From: Fusobacteriota bacterium | Lineage (GTDB): Bacteria > Bacillota > TC1 | Direction of reading: 5' to 3' | Assembly: GCA_022615965.1 (NCBI GenBank) | Contig: JAKEGG010000007.1 | Span: 28,067 to 92,066, forward strand | Length of the DNA: 64,000 bases | Shown here: piece by piece, positions 20,425 through 51,925 of the stretch | Numbering within the stretch: the stretch's first letter is position 1 | Layout: the number at the start of each line of letters is the position of its first letter | The notes under the pieces: model-generated | Database searches by the model: none | What the model was told of the DNA's origin: nothing | Seen by the model: only the letters and a program-made list of their open reading frames with translations | Made by a program: the position numbers and the translations under genes

Positions 20425-21459
20425 CTACACAAAGTCCTTCATTATACTGTTAATACATGCATCCATATCATTTGTATCATAGGTATGCTTGTATCTATTG
20501 TTATTTTTTCTATTTTTATTATATAAAATATCATAATAGTTTATTAATAAGTAAGAAACTACATTTTCTGCTCCCAAATTATTAAAACTATCAACTAATT
20601 CATCTACAACTTTTTTGCCTAAAAAATCTTTCAAGACATTGATACTACGAACTATCTCATCTTTATTTTCATCTAGAAAACCACCATAATCTTTGATTAT
20701 TCGTTTAGTTCTATTGTTTATATTACTTTCAATCAGATAACTTTCTCCGTTTATCATTTTATCATAAAAACCATTTGGAATATATAACCTGCCGATTTTT
20801 TTGCTTTCTCCCTCAACAATAATATATTTACTCTCAATACTTATAATCGAATTAAATAAATCACTATCAAATTTTTTCTGGCTTGGTTGTTCTCCTAGAC
20901 CTATATGGCCAAAAACAGAACCTCTATTATTTGCCAAACCTTCAAGATCGATAACCGGCATCTTCTTTTCTTTGAGTAGTTTTAGTAATTCAGTTTTCCC
21001 ACACCCAGTTAAGCCATATAAGACTCTTATTTTTTTATTAAAATCTTTTTCAAAGTAATTCAGAATATAGTTTCGATAACTCTTATATCCTCCGGATAAC
21101 TTATACACATTATCTAATTCTATAGAGAGAAGTGTAGCAGTTACTTCGCTCCTATCTCCCCCTCTGGCACAGTATATAATTATTTTACTATTGTCTTTGG
21201 CTGACTTGTGAAAACTATTTAAATAAGCTAAAGATCTTGGTAAAACCATTTCTCTGGCCTTTTCTTTAGCTAACTTATTGCCTTTTTCTTTATATATGGT
21301 TCCTATTATTTTTCTCTCATTATCATCAAGTAAAGGGAGGTTAACAGCTCCTAAAATATGATCTTCAGCAAATTCAGATTCACTTCTGACATCAAAAAAT
21401 ATATATTCAGACTTATTTACCATAGCTTCTTCTATACTTATATGTTTGAATTTAGCCAT
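20425..21459 (-). CDS. selU: tRNA 2-selenouridine synthase (SelU/MnmH)
   Basis: Rhodanese domain with IIIYCARGGDRS active-site loop, plus P-loop GLTGCGKT. The start is taken at MAKFKHISIEE (the track start 21483 would overlap ftsK). Confidence 0.85.
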   Translation of the reverse strand: MAKFKHISIEEAMVNKSEYIFFDVRSESEFAEDHILGAVNLPLLDDNERKIIGTIYKEKGNKLAKEKAREMVLPRSLAYLNSFHKSAKDNSKIIIYCARGGDRSEVTATLLSIELDNVYKLSGGYKSYRNYILNYFEKDFNKKIRVLYGLTGCGKTELLKLLKEKKMPVIDLEGLANNRGSVFGHIGLGEQPSQKKFDSDLFNSIISIESKYIIVEGESKKIGRLYIPNGFYDKMINGESYLIESNINNRTKRIIKDYGGFLDENKDEIVRSINVLKDFLGKKVVDELVDSFNNLGAENVVSYLLINYYDILYNKNRKNNNRYKHTYDTNDMDACINSIMKDFV

Positions 21460-23776
21460 CAATATCACCAAATATTTTACCAAACTCTTCCCAATTAGCG
21501 ATTACATCTCTACTTTTTGTTCCTTCAAATGGACCAACTATTCCCTTGGCTTCCAAATCATCAATTAATCTGGCTGCTCGGCTATAGCCAATCCTCAGTT
21601 TTCTTTGTAGCATAGAAATAGAAGCCTGATCAGTTTCGAGCACCAATTTTGCTGCTTCCTTTAAAAGGTCATCTTCTTTATCGTTGTTTCTATATGAAAC
21701 TGTATCCTCCTCATCATCAATATCTACATCAATCATTTCTGAACCTTGAAGATATTCGGGAGCTCCTTGTTTTTTAAGAAACTTGGTGATATTTACTATT
21801 TCTTCTTCGGATATATATGCTCCTTGGATTCTTTGAAGTTTTCCACCCTTTAAAGTAAAAAGCATATCTCCCTTACCTAATAATTTTTCTGCCCCAGTAG
21901 AATCTAATATAGTTCTGGCATCAATTTGTGAAAAAACAGCAAAGGCAATACGCATAGGTATGTTAGATTTTATATCACCGGTAATTACCTGAACTGAAGG
22001 TCTTTGAGTAGCTACGATCAAATGAAGTCCTGCAGCCCTGGCCTTTTGAGCTAATCTGCAAATATATGTTTCAACATCGACAGGAGCCGCCATCATCAAA
22101 TCAGCTAGCTCATCGATGATTATAACTACATAAGGAATTCTTTCTGTCGTCTTAACATTAGAATTAAAGGTTTTAATGTCCTTTACTCCTACATCTGAAA
22201 GCAGCTGATATCTTCTTTCCATTTCATTGACCATCCATTTTAAAGCAGTTGCAGCTTTTTTTGGTTCAGTGACAACTGGTGCTACTAGATGTGGAATATC
22301 ATTATATAAATTAAGTTCAACTTTTTTAGGGTCGATCATTAAAAATTTAAGTTCATCTGGAGTATATTTAAACAACAGGCTACATATTATTGTATTTAAA
22401 CAAACACTTTTACCTGATCCAGTAGAACCTGCAATCAGCAAATGAGGCATTTCGGCTAAACTTGTAGTTACCGTTTTACCAGTTATATCTTTTCCAATCC
22501 CCATTGTTAAAGGTAAATTACTATCTTTAAAGGCGGTTGACATAATGATTTCCTTAAATGAAACAGGTAGAACCTTTTTGTTTGGAATTTCAAACCCAAC
22601 AGCTGATTTACCAGGTATAGGAGCTTCTATTCGAACACTAGTTGCAGCAAGTGCCAAAGCAATATCTTCTGACAGTCCTTGTATTTTACTAACCTTGGTA
22701 CCTGGTTCTAAAACTGCTTCATAACGAGTTATAGAAGGTCCACAATTAACATCTTTAACCTGTATATTAACGCCAAAGCTCCTTAATGTTTCTTCAAGTC
22801 TTAAAGCAGTAGCTTCTAATTCAGATTTTTTACCATACTCTTTATCTTTCTTTAATGAATTCAACAATACTGTACCTGGCAGGATCCATTTAACTGGATG
22901 ATGTGACTTTAAACTGCCTTTAAAATCATTTTCTTCAATATTATCTTCTGAATTTATAATTGATACTACAGGTTTATCATTAGTGTTTTTATCAATATTA
23001 AATTGAGGTGGTTCTTCATCCTTAAAATTGAATTTTATTTTATTTTCTTCCTGTTTTTTTGATTCATCTGTTGTTTTTTTGGCAAAGTCTTCTTTATCTA
23101 AAGTAGCATTTAGCCATAATTGTTTTTCATAATCCTTAAGTCTGTCTTTTTTTTCCTCTTCCCTTATTTTTTCTTTATGTTTATATAATATTTCTTTTTT
23201 GGCTTGTCGTTCTTCTTGTAAATCACTGATTACTTTAGTTGAATAACTTTTAATACGACTTAAAGCTGTGATTTCATTAACAAGTAAAACTGTTCCTATA
23301 ATCAGCAATGCTAAAAAAACCAGCCAATAACCTACTATCCCAAAGCTATAATAAATTATATCACCAAAAAAAGCACCAATTATTCCTCCACCTTTTTGTA
23401 ACAAAAAAGCCTCCTGTAAAGACTGAAAGGAGAGTTTTTCTACATAGTTTATCTGGAAGATCATAAACATGCTTAAGTTTATCAACACAAGTGCATAGTA
23501 GAATGATATTCTGACTTTTTCTTTATTGATCAGTCGGTATACACCAATAAAAATCAATGACAATGAAACCAGTATCAAGACATTACCGAAAAAACCTTTA
23601 AAAATATATAAAAAAGCTCCCCCTAATACTCCAATATAGTTATCATAATCTGCAGAAAAGATAGTGGAAATAAAAAATACACCAGTAATTATCAGAAAAA
23701 AACTAATAAATGTATTCCTATTAGCACTAGTATTCTTTGTATTTTTATTTTTGATATTTTTCTTTTTTCTAGCCAT
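21452..23776 (-). CDS. ftsK: DNA translocase FtsK/SpoIIIE
   Basis: N-terminal TM helices, motor domain with GSTGSGKS, and a gamma winged helix (ISMLQRKLRIGYSRAARLIDDLE). The start is taken at MARKKK (ATG 23776; GGAG 5 nt upstream) rather than the track start 23857. Confidence 0.93.
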   Translation of the reverse strand: MARKKKNIKNKNTKNTSANRNTFISFFLIITGVFFISTIFSADYDNYIGVLGGAFLYIFKGFFGNVLILVSLSLIFIGVYRLINKEKVRISFYYALVLINLSMFMIFQINYVEKLSFQSLQEAFLLQKGGGIIGAFFGDIIYYSFGIVGYWLVFLALLIIGTVLLVNEITALSRIKSYSTKVISDLQEERQAKKEILYKHKEKIREEEKKDRLKDYEKQLWLNATLDKEDFAKKTTDESKKQEENKIKFNFKDEEPPQFNIDKNTNDKPVVSIINSEDNIEENDFKGSLKSHHPVKWILPGTVLLNSLKKDKEYGKKSELEATALRLEETLRSFGVNIQVKDVNCGPSITRYEAVLEPGTKVSKIQGLSEDIALALAATSVRIEAPIPGKSAVGFEIPNKKVLPVSFKEIIMSTAFKDSNLPLTMGIGKDITGKTVTTSLAEMPHLLIAGSTGSGKSVCLNTIICSLLFKYTPDELKFLMIDPKKVELNLYNDIPHLVAPVVTEPKKAATALKWMVNEMERRYQLLSDVGVKDIKTFNSNVKTTERIPYVVIIIDELADLMMAAPVDVETYICRLAQKARAAGLHLIVATQRPSVQVITGDIKSNIPMRIAFAVFSQIDARTILDSTGAEKLLGKGDMLFTLKGGKLQRIQGAYISEEEIVNITKFLKKQGAPEYLQGSEMIDVDIDDEEDTVSYRNNDKEDDLLKEAAKLVLETDQASISMLQRKLRIGYSRAARLIDDLEAKGIVGPFEGTKSRDVIANWEEFGKIFGDIDG

Positions 23777-26103: not shown

Positions 26104-26137
26104 AAAAAAAGGTTATCATTTATGATAACCTTTTTTT
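26104..26137. terminator. Bidirectional intrinsic terminator between ferredoxin (+) and corA (-)
   Basis: AAAAAAAGGTTATCA / TGATAACCTTTTTTT stem with a TTTA loop and A/T tracts on both sides. Confidence 0.8.
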
Positions 26138-27071
26138 ATAACATATTCTTTTTACGCATCAGATACCAAACTGAAATAGTCGTAGATATACTAAATAGTA
26201 AGACCAAAAGCGTTAGCCATGGAAGGCTATCCCCTGGTATAGGGAGGTTCATCCCAAAAAATGAAAATATCATAGTTGGGATAGCTAAAATAATCGTTAA
26301 ACCAGCCAAAACCTTCATAACATTATTTAGATTATTGGAAATAATAGAGGCGAAAGCATCCATTAACCCAGAAAGAATATTACTGTTGATTTCACTCATA
26401 TCAATCGCCTGCCTTGTTTCAGTCAATGCATCTTCAAGTAAATCTTCATCTTCCTCATACATAGGTAGCAACTTGGTTCTGAATATTTTTTTCATAACCA
26501 ACTCATTAGACCTTAATGATGTGGTGAAGTATAACAAACTTTTTTCTAAGCCTAACAGCTTAATTAGTTGTTCATTTTGCATTGAACCATGAAGTGCTCT
26601 TTCTAACTCACTAGTTTTACGATCTATATGTTTTAAAAATTTCAAATAATATATTGCTGCTTTATAAAATATTTGAAGTGCAAATCTGGTTTTTTTATAA
26701 GTTGACATCGACTTAACACCTCTTAATATAAAGTCCTGTAAAAGACTTATATCCTCTAATGATACTGTAATAAAATGATCCTCCAAGATTATCATACCTA
26801 AAGGGATGGTATTGTATATTATGCCATTATCTCCTTCTTCTTCTTCAATAGGAACATTGATGATAAGTAGAATCTGATCATCTTCCACATCGATTCTTGG
26901 TCTTTCTTCAGAATCCAAAGGAGCTTCCAGGTATTCCAGCAAAATGCCAGTATCCTCGGCAACATTTTGTAATTCTTCCCTGCTTGGATTAACAATGTTG
27001 ATCCAATTATTATTATCTTTTACTGAGGCTGTTTCAAGTTTTCCATCTATAGTTTTGTAAGCAGTGATCAC
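26136..27071 (-). CDS. corA: CorA-family magnesium/cobalt transporter
   Basis: 311 aa. FFGMNLP (GMN) motif between two C-terminal TM helices. GTG start with GGAGG 7 nt upstream. Confidence 0.9.
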   Translation of the reverse strand: MITAYKTIDGKLETASVKDNNNWINIVNPSREELQNVAEDTGILLEYLEAPLDSEERPRIDVEDDQILLIINVPIEEEEGDNGIIYNTIPLGMIILEDHFITVSLEDISLLQDFILRGVKSMSTYKKTRFALQIFYKAAIYYLKFLKHIDRKTSELERALHGSMQNEQLIKLLGLEKSLLYFTTSLRSNELVMKKIFRTKLLPMYEEDEDLLEDALTETRQAIDMSEINSNILSGLMDAFASIISNNLNNVMKVLAGLTIILAIPTMIFSFFGMNLPIPGDSLPWLTLLVLLFSISTTISVWYLMRKKNML

Positions 27072-29339: not shown

Positions 29340-29915
29340 CTATATTTTCTCTATCAAAATTGGATACGGGCTATTATTGATTCTGTTTAAGTACTTCCAA
29401 CTCATAGTTATAAATTCCTTTTGATTTAAGGCAGTAAGAAAAGAATGAAGACTTTCTTCTTCTTTCTTTCCTTCTTGATGACCTGGATAAATTATCAAAA
29501 GAACTATACCATTCTTATTTAAAATTTTTAATATTTTGTTTAAAGCTACTATTGTTGATTTTGCTTTTGTCGTAATTTTCTTATTGCCCCTTGGGAGATA
29601 GCCAAGATTAAAAATTGCACCATCGATCTTTTCTTTTATGTAATAGTCAATTTTTTCATGTGAATCAAAAATCAACCTGACTGAATTTTCGGTCGTCAGT
29701 TTATCCTTGGTTCTTTCAATAGCTTCAGCTTGTATATCAAAGCTATAGACAAAGCCAAGCTGAGCTAAAAATAAAGTGTCTTCACCATTACCGCAGGTAG
29801 CATCTATAAAAACATTATTAAATGTATCTTTAAACCTAGCGTTGAATATACTTCTAAAAATCGTTATAGCATTATTAAAATCAATAATCTTATTTTCTTT
29901 TTCCAATTTTTTCAC
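29340..29915 (-). CDS. mnmM: YtqB/MnmM-family SAM-dependent methyltransferase
   Basis: 191 aa. DATCGNGEDT and FNLGYLPRGNKKITT motifs typical of the YtqB family. Confidence 0.7.
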   Translation of the reverse strand: MKKLEKENKIIDFNNAITIFRSIFNARFKDTFNNVFIDATCGNGEDTLFLAQLGFVYSFDIQAEAIERTKDKLTTENSVRLIFDSHEKIDYYIKEKIDGAIFNLGYLPRGNKKITTKAKSTIVALNKILKILNKNGIVLLIIYPGHQEGKKEEESLHSFLTALNQKEFITMSWKYLNRINNSPYPILIEKI

Positions 29916-32014: not shown

Positions 32015-32090
32015 AGGGGAGTAGCTCAACTGGTAGAGTAGTGGTCTCCAAAACCATTGGTTGCGGGTTCGATTCCTGTCTCCCCTGCCA
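32015..32090 (+). tRNA. trnW: tRNA-Trp (anticodon CCA), CCA-encoded
   Basis: Hand-folded cloverleaf: acceptor AGGGGAG/CTCCCCT, anticodon loop CTCCAAA, T-loop GGTTCGATTCC, discriminator G, then CCA. Confidence 0.93.
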
Positions 32091-32098
32091 CATTTATT

Positions 32099-32131
32099 AA
32101 AAGGAGTAGTGATTTTGCTACTCCTTTTTTT
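32099..32131. terminator. Bidirectional intrinsic terminator shared by tRNA-Trp (+) and tlyA (-)
   Basis: 9-bp stem AAGGAGTAG/CTACTCCTT flanked by A and T tracts. The 3' arm contains the last codons and stop of tlyA. Confidence 0.75.
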
Positions 32132-32927
32132 CATCAGTATTATTTACTATGGAATAGATACTGTCCTCATCTATTCTATTCTGCTTAACTTGCTCTTTGA
32201 TAAACAAAATCAAATATTCATCATTTCCTTTTGTACCTGAAATAGGTGATTTTTCTAAAGCCATTGGAGAAAAACCGACCTTAACTGCAAAATCTACGAT
32301 GTTCCTTATTACCTCTTGGTGCACATTTTTATCCTTGACTATACCCTTTTGGATTACTGCATCTTTACCAGCCTCAAATTGAGGTTTTATCAATGCTATC
32401 ATTATACCTTTATCTTTTAAAACATCAAATGCAGGTTGTAAAATTTTATCTAATGAAATAAACGATACATCTGTAACTATAATATCCATTAATATATTAT
32501 CTAAGATATCACTAGTTAAATATCTGGCATTGACCTTTTCTTTAGATATTACTCTCGGATCATTTCTTAACTTAAATGCCAACTGATTATGTCCAACATC
32601 AATGCTATATACTTTTTTTGCTCCTCTTAATAAAAGAATTTCTGTAAACCCACCCGTAGATGCTCCGATATCCAGACAAATTTTATTGTCAACTTTAATA
32701 TCAAATTCATCCAATGCCTTTAAAAGCTTTAGAGCTCCACGACTTACATAAGGAAAGCTTTTTTTGATTATCTTAACAATTGCAGTATCTTTAATTAAAG
32801 CTCCCGCCTTTTCAATCTTACAATTATCTACCAGAATATTTCCTGCCATAATTTCAGCTCTAGCTCTTTGTCTTGTTTCAAAATATCCATTTTCTACAAG
32901 ATAAACATCTAATCTGGTTTTAGACAT
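32118..32927 (-). CDS. tlyA: TlyA-family rRNA 2'-O-methyltransferase
   Basis: 269 aa. S4 domain (RLDVYLV) plus FtsJ-type MTase (LDIGASTGGFTE). Confidence 0.9.
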   Translation of the reverse strand: MSKTRLDVYLVENGYFETRQRARAEIMAGNILVDNCKIEKAGALIKDTAIVKIIKKSFPYVSRGALKLLKALDEFDIKVDNKICLDIGASTGGFTEILLLRGAKKVYSIDVGHNQLAFKLRNDPRVISKEKVNARYLTSDILDNILMDIIVTDVSFISLDKILQPAFDVLKDKGIMIALIKPQFEAGKDAVIQKGIVKDKNVHQEVIRNIVDFAVKVGFSPMALEKSPISGTKGNDEYLILFIKEQVKQNRIDEDSIYSIVNNTDEKKE

Positions 32928-34758
32928 TTAAGATAGCCTCTATATTATTTAGTATTCTTTCTTTTGTAAAACCTACATCATGTCTTAATTCACTTATTGA
33001 ACCATGTTCAATAAATTCATTAGGCAAACCATAGCAATAAACCATAGGTTTCTGTAACTGACTTTTTAATAGTGAACCGAAGCCCCCTAAAACCACATGG
33101 TTTTCAATGGTAAATATTTTTTCATATTTTTCAAGTGAAGCTAACATGTCTTGATTCAAAGGAGTAATAAATCTACTATTAATTAAATCAACATTTATAC
33201 CTTTAATCTCTAAGTGTTCTTTAATATATTGAGCTGCAATGAATTCATTACCTAAACTAATGATTCCAATCTTATTATCTTCAGATTGATTGATATATTC
33301 CATCTTGCCTAATTCAATAGGTTGAATCTGATCATCTTTTTCCATATAGCTATTACCTTTAGGAAATCTGATCATTACTGGACCATTAAAATGTACTGCA
33401 TAATCTAACATATCCTGAAGCTCGTTACCATCTTTAGGCTCCATAAAAATTAAATTAGGAATATTTCCAAATAAATTAATATCAAAAACACCATGGTGGG
33501 TCTCACCATCTTCTCCTACCAATCCAGCTCTATCTAAAACCATAGTTACCGGTAAATTTTGCATACAGATATCATGAATGACCTGATCCACTCCTCTTTG
33601 CATAAATGTAGAATATATAGCTATTACTGGATGAAATCCTGCAATTGCTTGTCCTGCTGCAAAAGTTAGACCATGTTGTTCTGCAATACTTACATCAAAA
33701 AACCTATCTGGTAACTTTTCTCTGAACTTCTCAAGTCCTGTTCCAGTACACATTGCAGCTGTAATAGCTGTTATGTTTTCGTTTTTCTGAGCTAGTCTTA
33801 ATAAATGTTCTCCAAAAATATTTGTAAAACTCTTCAGCTTTTTATTACCTGCCGGAGCTATTCCATGATACTTTTCAGGATCATCTTCTGCATGTAAAAC
33901 TCCTTTGCCTTTAGTAGTGATAACATGGATCAAAGTTGGTTGGTGGATACTTTTCGCTATTTTAAAACCTTCCTCCAGACCGATGATGTCGTGCCCATCA
34001 TATGGTCCTAAGTAAGTAAAGCCAAAATTTTCAAAGAAAATACCTTTAGAAGATAGCCAGTACTTAATCAAACCTTTTACTCTGCTTAAACCTCTTCTAA
34101 CATATCTACCTGAAGATGTTTTGATCAACTCGGAAGTAAGTTTATATTTCATATTCCGATAATAGCTTCCTGAGCTGATTTTTGTAAGTTGTTTAGCTAT
34201 CGCTCCAATGGGTTCTGAAATGGACATTTCATTATCATTTAATACAATAATAATATTTTTATTGATATGACCTTCATGGTTTAAAGCTTCTAAAGCCATA
34301 CCTCCACTTAAGGCACCATCTCCAATATTTACTATGATATCGTATTTTTCACCTTTTAGATCTCTGACTGTGGCCATACCTAAAGCAGCAGATATAGATG
34401 TACTGCTGTGTCCAGTATCAAGTATATCGTGAGAGCTTTCCTTTCTCTTTGGAAAACCGCTTAAACCTTTGAATTGTCTGATAGTCTTAAAAGCTTCATA
34501 CCTGCCAGTCAATATTTTATGGGTATAGCTTTGATGACCAACATCAAATATTATTTTATCCTTTGGGGAGTTAAATATTCTGTGTTGAGCCACTGTAAGT
34601 TCAACTGCACCTAGATTTGATGCTAAATGACCACCATTTTTTTTGACTACTTCTTCAATGTATTCTCTTATTTCCTGACATAAAGGTATCAGGTCTTTTT
34701 CTTCAATTTGCCTTAAATCCTCTGGAGAATTAATCTTTTCTAACATATTATTTACCAA
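32920..34758 (-). CDS. dxs: 1-deoxy-D-xylulose-5-phosphate synthase
   Basis: 612 aa. GHSSTSISAALG, the GDGALSGGMALEALN TPP motif, and a transketolase-like C-terminus. Confidence 0.96.
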   Translation of the reverse strand: MVNNMLEKINSPEDLRQIEEKDLIPLCQEIREYIEEVVKKNGGHLASNLGAVELTVAQHRIFNSPKDKIIFDVGHQSYTHKILTGRYEAFKTIRQFKGLSGFPKRKESSHDILDTGHSSTSISAALGMATVRDLKGEKYDIIVNIGDGALSGGMALEALNHEGHINKNIIIVLNDNEMSISEPIGAIAKQLTKISSGSYYRNMKYKLTSELIKTSSGRYVRRGLSRVKGLIKYWLSSKGIFFENFGFTYLGPYDGHDIIGLEEGFKIAKSIHQPTLIHVITTKGKGVLHAEDDPEKYHGIAPAGNKKLKSFTNIFGEHLLRLAQKNENITAITAAMCTGTGLEKFREKLPDRFFDVSIAEQHGLTFAAGQAIAGFHPVIAIYSTFMQRGVDQVIHDICMQNLPVTMVLDRAGLVGEDGETHHGVFDINLFGNIPNLIFMEPKDGNELQDMLDYAVHFNGPVMIRFPKGNSYMEKDDQIQPIELGKMEYINQSEDNKIGIISLGNEFIAAQYIKEHLEIKGINVDLINSRFITPLNQDMLASLEKYEKIFTIENHVVLGGFGSLLKSQLQKPMVYCYGLPNEFIEHGSISELRHDVGFTKERILNNIEAILNV

Positions 34759-35278
34759 CTACCTTTTTAAATATATAAATAACTTTACCACAAATAATCA
34801 TTAACTTATTTGCATGATTCATGGCATAGTATTTTCCTATAGCTTTACCAAAGACAGTTAAAGCTACAATAATTGCTGTAATTATCAATGTATAGCTGTC
34901 TTGTCTTTTGATATCTGATGTGATTGCTATAACGATCCCGACACCAAAAACTCCACTTAAAGTATTTAATACATCACCTATTACATCCTGACAAATATTT
35001 GCAAATCTATCTGCCTTTTTAATAATTATAACAGCTTCTTTGGCACCTATTTCTTTTTTTGCTGCTAATGCATTGACAGGCTTTAAGCTTGCCGCAGCTG
35101 CTGCTGTACCTAAAGCATCCGCAATAATGCCAAAAATTATGATTACAATTAATACTAGAATCATAATACCAACAGCACCAGAGCTTGCTATTATAAAATT
35201 GGAAAAAAGTCCTACTAATATAGCAATAATAATTGCTATTATTGCTATAACTAATGCATTCTTAACATTCTTAATAAT
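34748..35278 (-). CDS. oapA: Small polytopic membrane protein in the OapA (OLE-associated protein A) position; probable AUU start
   Basis: The track ORF (34748..35164) starts at an internal ATG without an SD. The frame stays open 120 nt further up to a TGA at 35285..35287. GAGGTG at 35286..35291 is followed 7 nt later by ATT (35278). The extension IIKNVKNALVIAIIAIIIAILVGLF.. is a typical first TM helix. The OapA identity rests on position (RNA, membrane protein, dxs, tlyA). Confidence 0.55.
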   Translation of the reverse strand: MIKNVKNALVIAIIAIIIAILVGLFSNFIIASSGAVGIMILVLIVIIIFGIIADALGTAAAAASLKPVNALAAKKEIGAKEAVIIIKKADRFANICQDVIGDVLNTLSGVFGVGIVIAITSDIKRQDSYTLIITAIIVALTVFGKAIGKYYAMNHANKLMIICGKVIYIFKKVVGK

Positions 35279-35302
35279 GTTTATTCACCTCTAAAAATAA
35301 TT

Positions 35303-35845
35303 TGGTGGTAGTATATACAGTAAATTTTGCGGCTTAGGTCAAGTAGGCTTTCCCACTATTCTACAATCTGTTACCAAAATTGCAATTTCTTTTTAAAGAA
35401 TAGCTTGTCTGTCACCATAAACAAAACTTGATTACCACTTAGCTTGCACTTTAATCCCATATATACATCAGCCTAGAAGTTTTCCTTAACAGCAATTATA
35501 AATTCTTATCCTCTTTTGCAAATAGAATTTCATCGTCTATCTTCCAACTTCGGCCTGACGTCGAAAGACAGCTTGTTAGAATCCCTTCTGATTCGCTCAA
35601 GGCGAGCTACACTGTTTTTAGGTTAGCTCCCCACAAACAGGTTTACTTAAGTTTCCTTAAGCCTCCACGGTAGTAGGGACAAGTTTTACATGCCATTGCA
35701 AGTTGCCCTAGCTGCCTTAACCTCCAATACAACCCTAAACTGGGCGTCTAAAGCTAATATCAGAGACTTCATCGTTATGCTCTTTAGTGGATTTTTAGCC
35801 CCACCTTCCAAATAAATAATACTGACTAGGATACTGTAACCACCA
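35303..35845 (-). ncRNA. ole: Probable OLE (ornate, large, extremophilic) RNA
   Basis: About 540 nt with no ORF and visibly more G+C than its flanks. The 5' TGGTGGT-TACAGTA pairs with the 3' TACTGTA-(6 nt)-ACCACCA. Internal helices include CTTAAG-GAAA-CTTAAG (35646..35661) and TAGGG.CAA/TTG.CCCTA (35674..35710). Synteny with oapA-like-dxs-tlyA...nadK-argR-recN matches the published OLE locus. Not verified with a covariance model. Confidence 0.7.
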
Positions 35846-35847
35846 TA

Positions 35848-35883
35848 TTTTTTAAAACAAAAAGAAGCTGGTTAACCAGCTTC
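35848..35883 (-). terminator. Intrinsic terminator after rpmF
   Basis: Perfect 8-bp stem GAAGCTGG/CCAGCTTC around the palindromic TTAA tetraloop (20-nt palindrome GAAGCTGGTTAACCAGCTTC), followed by TTTTTGTTTT. Confidence 0.8.
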
Positions 35884-35899
35884 ATACAATCAATAATTA

Positions 35900-36085
35900 T
35901 TACTTTTCTTTGATAGTAATAACAGCTTTCCCTTTGTAATAGCCACAAGTTGGACAAGCTTTATGGGGCTCTTTTAATTCGTGACATTGTCCACATTCAG
36001 TTAAAGCTGGAACATCAACTTTTCTCCAAGCTGCTCTTCTGACATTAGTTCTTGAATTTCCTTGCCTTCTTTTAGGTACTCCCAT
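35900..36085 (-). CDS. rpmF: 50S ribosomal protein bL32
   Basis: 61 aa. MGVPKRRQGNSRTNVRRA and a CxxC..CxxC zinc ribbon. Confidence 0.95.
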   Translation of the reverse strand: MGVPKRRQGNSRTNVRRAAWRKVDVPALTECGQCHELKEPHKACPTCGYYKGKAVITIKEK

Positions 36086-36179: not shown

Positions 36180-36207
36180 ATTATATACTATTTCTTGACT
36201 ATTTCAA
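36180..36207 (-). promoter_or_regulatory. Sigma-A promoter upstream of rpmF
   Basis: TTGAAA, a 16 nt spacer, then TATAAT on the minus strand, about 95 nt upstream of the rpmF ATG. Confidence 0.6.
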
Positions 36208-39173: not shown

Positions 39174-39722
39174 TTATTTGTTGATTCTTTTATCTATTTG
39201 TTTTTTTATCAGCATATATATGCCAATTGAAATAACAGAAGATAAAATCCCTTTGATAATATTGAATGGTATTATAGCAGTTATTAGCATTGTAGCAACC
39301 TGATCGGATTGTATACCGTAAAGTGGTAGAAAAACAAAATAATTTAATAATGTCATTGTTACGGTTAATAATAACGAACCAACAAGTACTGCTAGTACTT
39401 TGGAAAGAATTTTTTCTCCTTTTCTGATAAAGAAAACTGTTCCTAAAACTAGCGATAATCCTGATACCAAGCTAGCCAGTGCACCTATCCAACCTCCATC
39501 CTTTGGTCCTAACACAAAATATAATACAGCTTTGACTATTACTATAAATATTCCTGGAATTGGACCTAAGACAAATGCACCTATCATAGCTACAACTTCA
39601 CTTAAATCATAGGTTAAGAATGTTGCTGAAGGTATCAGTGGCACTTTTAAATACATCAATATAAAACTAATTGCTGCTAATATTGCTACTGTTACCATTA
39701 TTTTCAGTTCTTTACTTTTCAT
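39174..39722 (-). CDS. ribU: ECF-transporter S component, riboflavin-specific (assigned from the FMN riboswitch)
   Basis: 182 aa with six TM helices of ECF S-component type. It lies directly behind an FMN riboswitch. Confidence 0.8.
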   Translation of the reverse strand: MKSKELKIMVTVAILAAISFILMYLKVPLIPSATFLTYDLSEVVAMIGAFVLGPIPGIFIVIVKAVLYFVLGPKDGGWIGALASLVSGLSLVLGTVFFIRKGEKILSKVLAVLVGSLLLTVTMTLLNYFVFLPLYGIQSDQVATMLITAIIPFNIIKGILSSVISIGIYMLIKKQIDKRINK

Positions 39723-39743: not shown

Positions 39744-39905
39744 AAAAAAACCCTCAGGAACGTTTCCTAAGGGTTTTGAATGCTAAAAACATATCTTCTC
39801 TCATCCAGACTTTACTGTCGGCTCTAGAATTTCACTAGATCAGCATTTGCTCGCGGGCTTTACCGCCGGTAAGGAATTACACCTAACCCTGAAGAAACTA
39901 TTATT
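39744..39905 (-). promoter_or_regulatory. FMN riboswitch (RFN element) with intrinsic terminator
   Basis: Minus strand reads CTTCAGGGTTAGGTGTAATTCCTTACCGGCGGTAAAGCCCGCGAGC...AGCCGACAGTAAAGTCTGGATGAGAGAAGA, which matches the RFN core. It is followed by the terminator AAAACCCTTAGGAAACGTTCCTGAGGGTTTTTTT. Confidence 0.92.
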
Positions 39906-50119: not shown

Positions 50120-50794
50120 ATGGAGGCCACCATGCAACAATATGATTTCAGCCAGTATTTCGATCATACAAATTTAAAAAATGATTTTGATTATATTCAA
50201 CTTAATAATTTAATTGATGAAGCCAAAGAATATGGCTTTAATACTATTTGTATTCCTCCTATTTATGTTTCCAAGGCAAAGGAAATATACAAGGATATTA
50301 AAATAACAACAGTAATTGATTTTCCCTTTGGATACTCAAATTTTAATAGTAAAATTTCCCAATTAGATGCTGCTTTTCATGATGGTGCTGATGAGTTCGA
50401 TTTAGTTATGGCACCAATGATAATTAAAAACAAAGAATATTTGTATTATGAAAATGTTATTGCTTCAGCTAAAAAAACAATAGGTAGTAAAGTTTTAAAA
50501 ATCATTATTGAAACTAGTCAGTTAGATAATTCAGAAATCATTGATGTCAGTAAAATATGTGAAAGTACAAATGCTGACTATATTAAAACCTCATCAGGCT
50601 ATGGGTCACGTGGCGCTGACCTGAAAGATATTGAGTTGATCAAACTTGGTGCACCAAACACAAAAATAAAAGCATCAGGAGGTATTAAAACTCTTGCTGA
50701 TGCTTTAAGTTTTATTGATATGGGAGTATCTCGTATTGGCTCTAGTAATTCTGTAGAAATTCTAAAGAGCTTTGTAGTTGCCAATAGAATTTAA
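50120..50794 (+). CDS. deoC: Deoxyribose-phosphate aldolase
   Basis: DHTNLK, ADYIKTSSGYG (Schiff-base Lys) and KASGGI motifs. The true start may be the second ATG at 50132, because GGAGG lies inside the first codons. Confidence 0.92.
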   Translation: MEATMQQYDFSQYFDHTNLKNDFDYIQLNNLIDEAKEYGFNTICIPPIYVSKAKEIYKDIKITTVIDFPFGYSNFNSKISQLDAAFHDGADEFDLVMAPMIIKNKEYLYYENVIASAKKTIGSKVLKIIIETSQLDNSEIIDVSKICESTNADYIKTSSGYGSRGADLKDIELIKLGAPNTKIKASGGIKTLADALSFIDMGVSRIGSSNSVEILKSFVVANRI

Positions 50795-51925
50795 TACTTC
50801 TATTACATAATCTATTTCTTCTTTTTTAGTATAATGACCTATTGAAAAACGGATACTACCAGAAGGACTTTTAAAGGTTTTATGAGCTAATGGACTGCAA
50901 TGCAAACCACTTCTGCACATTATCCCATGTTGATAATCAAGGATTCCTGCTAATTCACCACTATCGATGCCTTTGATATTAAATGATATCAATGGTAGTT
51001 TTTCTCCGTACATATCACCATAAAAACTAATGCCAGGTATATTCTTTATCCCTTCATATAATCTATCATGTAAATGCATTTCTCTTTCATATGCATCTCT
51101 TATATTAATACTAAGCAAATATTCTAAGGCTCCATGAAGTCCTGCAATACCTATAACATTTAGTGTTCCTGCTTCAAATCTATCTGGTAGCATTTCAGGC
51201 ATCTTTGCTTCTTCAGAAAAACTTCCTGTACCTCCATCAATTAAGGTATTAATAGAATTACCAATCTCTTCCTTTAAAATAAATCCACCAATACCCATAG
51301 GACCCATAAGGTGTTTATGTCCTGTAAAGGTAAAAACATCACAATAAAGCTCCTTAAAATCAACTGGAATAGAACCTGCTGATTGGGCTCCATCAACAAT
51401 CAAGAAACATTCCTTTGTTTTACAAATCTTTCCTATTTCTCTTATTGGTAAAATATGACCAGAAACATTTGAAGCATGGTTCATAATACATAGTTTTGTA
51501 TTTTCTTTAAAATACTTTGGAAATTTATCAAGAGGAAAAACACCATCAGAATCAACTTCCACAATATCATAATCAATTATTCCATCTATTTTCAAATGCT
51601 CAACTACTCTTAAAACACTATTGTGCTCCAAAGAAGATATCAACAAATGATCGCCCTTTTCTACCATACCCTTGATCGTTACGTTTAATGATTCAGTAAC
51701 ATTTTTGGTGAAGATAACATGGTCTTTAAGAGAGGCATTAAAGAATTCTTTGATCTTATGCCTGGTATTAAACACAAGCTTTCCAGCTTCAAGTGCCAGC
51801 TGATATCCACCTCTTCCAGGATTAGTATTATTAGATTTATAAAATTCTTCAATTCGCTTAAATACTTCATTTGGTTTTTTAAAGCTAGTTGCACCATAAT
51901 CTAAATAAACTTTCATTTTTATCAT
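50762..51925 (-). CDS. Class V aminotransferase-fold cysteine desulfurase / selenocysteine lyase-like protein
   Basis: 387 aa. PLP Lys in FTGHKHLMGP and an active-site Cys loop RSGLHCSP. Distinct from the nifS at 58070. Confidence 0.8.
   Translation of the reverse strand: MIKMKVYLDYGATSFKKPNEVFKRIEEFYKSNNTNPGRGGYQLALEAGKLVFNTRHKIKEFFNASLKDHVIFTKNVTESLNVTIKGMVEKGDHLLISSLEHNSVLRVVEHLKIDGIIDYDIVEVDSDGVFPLDKFPKYFKENTKLCIMNHASNVSGHILPIREIGKICKTKECFLIVDGAQSAGSIPVDFKELYCDVFTFTGHKHLMGPMGIGGFILKEEIGNSINTLIDGGTGSFSEEAKMPEMLPDRFEAGTLNVIGIAGLHGALEYLLSINIRDAYEREMHLHDRLYEGIKNIPGISFYGDMYGEKLPLISFNIKGIDSGELAGILDYQHGIMCRSGLHCSPLAHKTFKSPSGSIRFSIGHYTKKEEIDYVIEVLNSIGNYKAL

Follow-up and report, generated by a model that had tools for sequence, protein, structure and literature searches.

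OLE (ornate, large, extremophilic) RNAs have been known since 2006; the family is present in Rfam, and standard annotation would call a copy such as the one described here. To our knowledge, no biochemical activity of the OLE particle has been established in the literature. The RNAs of this family are stable and abundant and bind the membrane protein OapA (PMC3413148, PMC12265935), and the OLE particle is involved in stress tolerance (PMC3413148, PMC10898510, PMC12054373, PMC12265935). Their dimerisation involves the loops of P4, P5.1/P6.1 and P9 (PMC12265935, PMC12286853), i.e., the A-rich loop of P4 is a published dimer contact and the P5.1 and P6.1 loops have a kissing-loop role, and in the same model P3 is the stem that crosses the membrane (PMC12265935). 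Two further proteins have their own sites: OapC binds a k-turn formed by the joints J4a/5 and J5/6 (PMC9723947), and OapB binds the GNRA tetraloop of P13 together with a single-nucleotide bulge (PMC7936274). Beside the full-length RNAs, two natural variants have been described, variant 1 with short P7, P8 and P9 and often without the P13 site of OapB, and variant 2 without P7 and P8 (PMC11332333). The ROOL, GOLLD and raiA motif RNAs are likewise non-coding RNAs of large size and elaborate structure, with no established biochemistry, and some of them are homo-oligomeric (PMC12286853); unlike OLE, they have no OapA partner.

The window analysed here is the whole stretch of 64,000 nucleotides, and its segment 35845..35303, on the minus strand, is with a probability of about 97% an ole gene, encoding an OLE RNA of ~545 nt. 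The window was compared in full with Rfam 15, with the gathering thresholds as cutoffs, and three matches were obtained, i.e., OLE, an FMN riboswitch and a tRNA, and no match to ROOL, GOLLD or the raiA motif anywhere in the window. The OLE match (RF01071, 35858..35289, minus strand) scores 396.9 bits for a gathering score of 50 (E = 4.1e-113) and spans model positions 1-616 of 616, so that it is not truncated. A search with the Rfam OLE model was the check set beforehand in the preliminary description, which had assigned the region to OLE, and its outcome, a significant full-length match on the minus strand, bears the assignment out: this is a copy of an already described RNA family, correctly identified, in an uncultured Bacillota lineage. 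When the Rfam consensus structure is mapped onto the window sequence, 128 of the 138 modelled pairs are canonical. The more general features from which the region had been singled out are also real. It lies in the longest part of the window free of open reading frames of at least 60 aa (35295..35899, 605 nt; the second longest has 226 nt), and it is richer in G+C than its surroundings (39.0% for 35303..35845, a value reached by 0.3% of 543-nt windows, against a window mean of 31.2%). Folded alone, 35303..35845 gives −151.2 kcal/mol (z = −2.89), and none of 100 dinucleotide shuffles folds as well. The locus comprises the following features:

35303..35845, minus strand: OLE RNA, from the 5' strand to the 3' strand of P1 (RF01071 match, pairs, covariation; 35858..35289 for the match with its flanks)
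34748..35278, minus strand: oapA, 176 codons if the start is ATT 35278 (CNNM match, DxxxD, AlphaFold2 fold, OLE upstream)
32920..34758, minus strand: dxs, whose start overlaps the oapA stop codon (TIGR00204, 712.9 bits)
32118..32927, minus strand: tlyA (TIGR00478, 241 bits)
32015..32090, plus strand: tRNA-Trp (CCA), between tlyA and an asparaginase-like gene (Rfam tRNA match 32015..32087)
29915..29340, minus strand: mnmM (tRNA 5-aminomethyl-2-thiouridylate methyltransferase), between nadK and argR (207 bits)
35854..35883, minus strand: rpmF intrinsic terminator, an 8-bp stem with 5 G-C pairs (35883..35864) followed by a T run
35900..36085, minus strand: rpmF (ribosomal protein L32), the upstream neighbour (TIGR01031, 70 bits)
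39900..39789, minus strand: FMN riboswitch, upstream of the S component of an ECF-type riboflavin transporter (39722..39174) (RF00050, 117.5 bits)

The secondary structure of the RNA was examined by comparison with 12 other OLE RNAs, and it is supported by them, as had been proposed for a covariation check. The 13 distinct RNAs were aligned with MAFFT, and the Rfam consensus structure was mapped on the alignment; helices P1, P2 and P3, which are absent from the Rfam model, were added by eye before the pairs were counted. One related locus (L007 in our numbering) was left out of the alignment, its OLE and oapA being broken by an N run and a duplicated segment. The helices are, from the 5' end of the RNA:

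35839..35845, minus strand: 5' strand of P1, UGGUGGU, pairing with 35303..35309 (compensatory changes in 4 of 7 pairs)
35826..35830, minus strand: 5' strand of P2, CCUAG, pairing with CUAGG at 35472..35476 (100% of cells paired)
35816..35824, minus strand: 5' strand of P3/P3.1, pairing with 35490..35499 (compensatory changes in 7 of 9 pairs)
35786..35805, minus strand: P4 hairpin with the A-rich loop GCUAAAAA (98.7% paired; loop invariant in the 13 sequences)
35721..35766, minus strand: P5/P5.1 hairpin with the loop GCCCA at 35745..35741 (Rfam structure, covariation; loop invariant)
35669..35716, minus strand: P6/P6.1 hairpin with the loop AUGGCA at 35696..35691 (Rfam structure, covariation; loop invariant)
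35646..35661, minus strand: P7, a 6-bp stem with a GAAA cap, CUUAAG-GAAA-CUUAAG (Rfam structure)
35612..35640, minus strand: P8 hairpin of 29 nt (Rfam structure; the weakest helix, 59.5% paired)
35509..35603, minus strand: P9, a long arm of 95 nt with the apical loop AGGCC at 35556..35552 (Rfam structure, covariation)
35477..35487, minus strand: P10 (a name given here), a small hairpin with a GGAAAAC loop (Rfam structure, covariation)
35310..35467, minus strand: 3' domain, P12 to P15 (Rfam structure, covariation)
35424..35405, minus strand: P13, with a GUGA tetraloop (35415..35412) closed by a G-C pair and a 2-nt bulge, the predicted OapB site
35303..35309, minus strand: 3' strand of P1, ACCACCA (covariation, duplex search)

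Over the 13 RNAs, pairing is found in 79.0% of the cells, and in 39-47% of them in slid controls, where the 3' partners were shifted by 1-3 columns; such percentages are underestimates, because the MAFFT alignment is wrong in three variable stems (P1, P8 and distal P9), and the value of P8 (59.5%, the lowest of all helices) is partly due to this misalignment. Compensatory changes on both sides are found in 93 of 159 pairs (35-57 in the slid controls), and the covariation score is 0.374 (0.10-0.17 in the controls); no observed value is reached by any of 500 column shuffles. P1, P2 and P3, which lie outside the Rfam model, also covary, and in P2 a single pair varies, C-G being replaced by U-A or U-G in 8 of the 13 sequences. 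Two local helices that had been singled out by eye also turn out to belong to the Rfam structure: the 6-bp stem capped by GAAA at 35661..35646 is P7, and the helix at 35710..35674 corresponds to upper P6 and P6.1.

The pairing of the two ends of the RNA, which had been described as one long interrupted helix, is to be divided. Its outer part, TGGTGGT with ACCACCA, is P1 and covaries. Indeed, a duplex search between the ends shows that a terminal helix is possible in all 13 OLE RNAs, with differing sequences, for instance GGGCAUAUGGC/GCCAUAGCUC in L003, GGAUGUGGC/GCCAACAUC in L008 and, as a further example, UAGUAUGGC/GCCAAACUA. The inner part, UACAGUA with UACUGUA, has to be rejected: compensatory changes are lacking, 8-9 of the 13 sequences break three of its seven pairs, and its 3' strand is used by a competing helix (alignment columns 460-469/608-618) that is 96.9% paired with seven covarying pairs. 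We conclude that this inner pairing is a coincidence of A+T-rich sequence. Four of its pairs, AGUA/UACU, adjoin P1 and are invariant in the set of 13 RNAs, and as they never vary they allow no judgement.

Compared with the full-length OLE RNAs of Halalkalibacterium halodurans, Clostridium acetobutylicum and C. botulinum, the window RNA shares the set of helices P1-P10 and P12-P15, and it also shares the A-rich loop of P4, the P5.1/P6.1 loops, the GGCC loop of P9, the k-turn joints, and the GUGA loop and bulge of P13. The cores of the P5.1 and P6.1 loops, GCC and GGC respectively, can pair with each other. J4a/5 (CGAUGAAG) and J5/6 (GGUUAAGG) match the consensus and would together form the putative k-turn site of OapC. 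In the predicted OapB site, the bulge of P13 has 2 nt where the published site has a single nucleotide (PMC7936274), and a second GNRA loop, GUAA, caps the stem neighbouring P13. The binding of bS21 to this RNA is uncertain, because the 3' strand of P6, CCCUACUACC, is not a clean anti-Shine-Dalgarno mimic. As for the apical loop of P9, its tetramer is GGCC in 10 of the 13 RNAs and AGCU in the three others (L003, L005, L025). Both are palindromes; the loop is thus self-complementary in all 13, so that the proposed kissing-loop homodimer stays possible throughout.

Two differences from the full-length RNAs concern the size of the molecule, i.e., P7 is here reduced to 6 bp and a GAAA loop (Rfam model positions 205-235, 31 positions, are replaced by 3 nt), and the small hairpin that follows P10 (model positions 424-435) is absent. 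In the five other species of the clade of the window, this hairpin is likewise missing and P7 is also short. Like variant 1, the RNA comes from uncultured Bacillota known only from metagenomes and has a shortened P7. However, P8 (29 nt) and P9 (95 nt) are here of about full length and the GNRA loop of P13, which is often missing from variant 1, is retained, and both P7 and P8 are present, unlike in variant 2. Only P7 being short, we rejected an assignment to either variant, and the most fitting description of this OLE RNA is that of a full-length type whose P7 is minimal.

The open reading frame that follows the RNA encodes an OapA-type, CNNM-like membrane protein. The preliminary description had recognised a small membrane protein at this place, and the features published for OapA (PMC11332333) are present in it. 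Its score against Pfam CNNM, 27.4 bits, is just below the gathering score of 28.4, and OapA is placed likewise relative to true CNNM proteins in published work (PMC11332333). No NCBIfam model matches the protein. The DxxxD motif typical of OapA is found at D98-V-I-G-D102 and is invariant among the OapA homologues. An AlphaFold2 model (pLDDT 81.6, pTM 0.72) contains four long helices, at 2-33, 36-62, 89-119 and 123-154, and the loop between helices 2 and 3, AAKKEIGAKEAVIIIKKADR, has the basic character of the OapA cytoplasmic loop. The only meaningful matches of the model in the PDB are the CNNM proteins MtCorB (7M1T/7M1U, TM 0.62, probability 1.00) and CorC (7CFG); for the OapA of H. halodurans, too, 7M1U came out as the best match (PMC11332333). 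The protein shares with the CNNM/CorB/MpfA Mg2+ transporters the Pfam CNNM match, the MtCorB fold and the four long helices, and differs from them in having neither a CBS nor a CorC domain. No small protein of the L7Ae or KOW type (oapB/ybzG, oapC/ybxF) was found among the window ORFs examined, a set without several at 8.8-15.5 and 52-63.5 kb. From published correlations (PMC11332333), oapB and oapC would be expected in a genome such as this one, and mpfA would not.

The start of oapA is unusual. Before Met39, the oapA frame contains no ATG, GTG or TTG, and the AlphaFold2 model places this Met39 within its predicted helix 2; the presence of all four helices requires a start at or near ATT 35278. 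A Shine-Dalgarno sequence, GAGGTG, is located at 35291..35286, 7 nt before this ATT. In relatives, the arrangement is GAGGTG-N6-ATT and the GTG is in the oapA frame, while in the window species one extra base, C at 35279, puts GTG 35288 out of frame. This extra C is identical in six independent metagenome contigs. In a further locus (L022), the arrangement is AAGGAG-N5-ATG, with the ATG aligned with ATT 35278. Codons 2-38 of oapA, i.e., those that precede Met39, have a dN/dS of 0.16-0.23, and the remaining codons 0.03-0.05. The simplest reading of these sequences is that oapA is probably initiated at AUU 35278, after GAGGUG. We also considered that the oapA frame might be reached from GTG 35288 by a programmed +1 frameshift; this is less likely, as the sequence AAA-C-ATT contains no slippery or stall motif. 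Gene callers annotate at this place a truncated OapA product of 138 aa (P0002).

The relatives of the locus were sought with the translated downstream ORF (oapA) as query. A word-seeded protein search returned nine OapA homologues, all from metagenome assemblies; the homologue contigs comprise six of the window species (98.0% identical over 12.4 kb) and several of further species, whose OapA is 42-77% identical to that of the window. A scan of bacterial genomes, one per species, added eight more distant MAGs labelled Clostridia, Bacilli, Bacillales, Clostridium sp. or Bacillota. The relatives found in this way are distant, with 30-40% identity, except for L007, a MAG labelled 'Bacillota bacterium', which is the closest named record, the remaining relatives coming from metagenome assemblies. 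The N run and duplicated segment in the OLE/oapA region of L007 (5306..6300, GTDB MAG STCSWMC_229) are an assembly artefact. Of the related loci that were scanned, 21 had sequence upstream of the oapA homologue, and in 20 of these an Rfam OLE match (170-498 bits) immediately precedes that gene; for the remaining one of these 21, on a 3-kb contig (L006), no OLE match was reported. The lower Rfam score of another locus could suggest a deletion variant (L013, 3908..4453), and this was rejected, since the score is due to 10 N in a scaffold gap.

Like the full-length OLE loci, the window has oapA directly downstream of the RNA, then dxs, tlyA, nadK, argR and recN. It differs from them by an asparaginase-like gene, a ferredoxin gene, the tRNA-Trp and mnmM, which are interspersed downstream. 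Family searches upheld the genes that the preliminary description had listed, and added mnmM, between nadK and argR, which it had missed. The differences that it had pointed out from the published context, i.e., rpmF and ackA upstream, and the asparaginase-like gene, the ferredoxin gene and the tRNA-Trp between tlyA and nadK, are real and conserved across the clade. The OLE literature searched makes no mention of rpmF or ackA adjoining ole. The order rsgA-rpe-FMN riboswitch-ECF riboflavin component-...-ackA-rpmF-OLE-oapA-dxs-tlyA-(tRNA-Trp)-asparaginase-like-ferredoxin-nadK-argR-recN is found both in the window species and in two others, whose OapA is 77% and 61% identical, and mnmM precedes argR in the compared loci with the exception of L018. 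The FMN riboswitch is conserved in L009, L015, L018 and L007, and in relatives the identity is 92-94% for the tRNA-Trp and ~75% for its flanks. The uncultured Bacillota clade in which the order rpmF-OLE-oapA-dxs-tlyA...nadK-argR-recN has been conserved is known from metagenomes alone.

Two observations were made on other genes of the window. Directly after recN lies a gene for a CorA-like Mg2+/Co2+ transporter (27071..26136, minus strand; 114 bits for an NCBIfam cutoff of 200.75). In many Clostridia, recN is followed by spoIVB/spo0A. The CorA-like neighbour deserves mention, since OLE and OapA have been linked with Mg2+ in published work. The window also encodes a tRNA 2-selenouridine synthase, MnmH (21483..20425, minus strand, 360 bits). 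Another gene (51925..50762, minus strand) encodes a cysteine desulfurase with an additional, sub-cutoff match to the model of the selenocysteine lyase SclA, and the two genes together hint at the use of selenium.

The transcription of the RNA may be organised differently from what has been described in other bacteria. In B. halodurans, ole has a dedicated promoter (PMC3413148), and likewise the distant loci L001-L005, L008 and L025 contain TG-extended −10 promoters that end a few nt before P1. In the window, on the contrary, ackA-rpmF and a terminator stand upstream in place of such a promoter. The rpmF terminator ends ~10-20 nt before P1, and a G+C-rich stem followed by a T run is found at the equivalent position in L015, L019, L022, L018 and L023. 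Between rpmF and OLE there is no sigma-70-like promoter, nothing reaching 9 of 12 matches; the best candidate found by hand, TTAACC-17-AAAAAT (8/12), was rejected because transcription would start inside P1. The nearest strong promoter match, TTGAAA-16-TATAAT at 36207..36180, is upstream of rpmF. On the other side, oapA follows 24 nt downstream on the same coding strand, and since no terminator lies between them, OLE would be on one transcript with oapA-dxs-tlyA. To judge from these motifs, this transcript probably begins at or upstream of rpmF, and read-through from the rpmF promoter may be the route by which OLE is expressed.

Such an arrangement is also what one would expect of a mere long structured 5' leader, riboswitch-like or attenuator, acting in cis on oapA-dxs-tlyA: the stretch directly precedes oapA on the coding strand without an intervening terminator, it comes after the rpmF terminator and is not preceded by any recognisable dedicated promoter, and elsewhere in the window the FMN riboswitch is a genuine cis-regulator of such a kind. 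We nevertheless regard this reading as very improbable. Indeed, the match is to the OLE family, i.e., to stable and abundant RNAs that bind OapA (PMC3413148, PMC12265935), and no riboswitch family matches the stretch in the Rfam 15 scan. Moreover, with its ~545 nt and ~20 helices it goes far beyond any known leader, and its dimerisation and protein-binding motifs are conserved. No observation speaks against the identification as an OLE RNA.

An OLE RNA that has lost its function is a different matter, and the reduction of P7, the lack of model positions 424-435, the GTG that is out of the oapA frame, and the terminator directly upstream with no promoter could be seen as signs of a decaying or non-functional remnant in a reduced genome. 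This is even less probable than the leader, to the point that we give it hardly any credence, and the conservation of the locus is what speaks against it. Between the window and five conspecific contigs (L009-L012, L014), OLE differs by one substitution in 570 nt (99.8% identical) when the surrounding 12.4 kb are 98.0% identical; this sole difference, at window position 35562 (G in the window, A in the contigs), changes a G.U pair of P9 into A-U. At least five more species of the clade have the same compact architecture, and their OLE RNAs are 77-91% identical, which exceeds the 75-77% blastn identity of the neighbouring genes (L015, L018); for L015, OLE is 91.4% identical and a blastn alignment over the neighbouring genes gives 76.9%. 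OLE is thus more conserved than its surroundings. All the invariant motifs are intact, oapA shows the low dN/dS values given above (0.16-0.23 for codons 2-38 and 0.03-0.05 for the rest), and shortened P7, P8 and P9 are known as natural variants (PMC11332333). Judged on its sequence, the functional OLE RNA that we favour has the OLE fold and all the known contact motifs, and its partner gene is intact.

The roles that the parts of this RNA would play are drawn from the work on the OLE RNAs of Halalkalibacterium halodurans and Clostridium (PMC12265935, PMC7936274, PMC9723947, PMC12054373, PMC3413148). By analogy with them, the window RNA would be stable and abundant, and two copies would dimerise by the loop contacts of P4, P5.1/P6.1 and P9. 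OapA dimers would hold the RNA at the cell membrane, next to P3, and the P3 stem itself possibly crosses the bilayer. The particle would be completed by OapB on P13, OapC on the k-turn and bS21 on P6, and it would help the cell to tolerate short-chain alcohols, cold, excess Mg2+ and poor carbon sources.

The promoter and start codon data, taken together, also lead to a tentative proposal, to which we give clearly less than even odds: the wiring of the locus may differ in this clade, in that OLE would be produced only by read-through or processing of the rpmF transcript, without a dedicated promoter, and a rare AUU codon would serve as the start of OapA. If this is true, the level of OLE would be tied to ribosome synthesis, and the AUU start would hold OapA at a much lower level than the RNA.

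In conclusion, the value of this locus is modest: it provides one more natural OLE sequence, fairly compact, from an uncultured Bacillota clade. Its short P7 and the loss of the hairpin after P10 are in line with published work, which regards P7 and P8 as dispensable, and the proposed kissing-loop dimer finds a natural test in the alternation of GGCC and AGCU at the P9 loop. The replacement of a promoter by a terminator and the probable AUU start are, for their part, small leads on how the ratio of RNA to protein is set.
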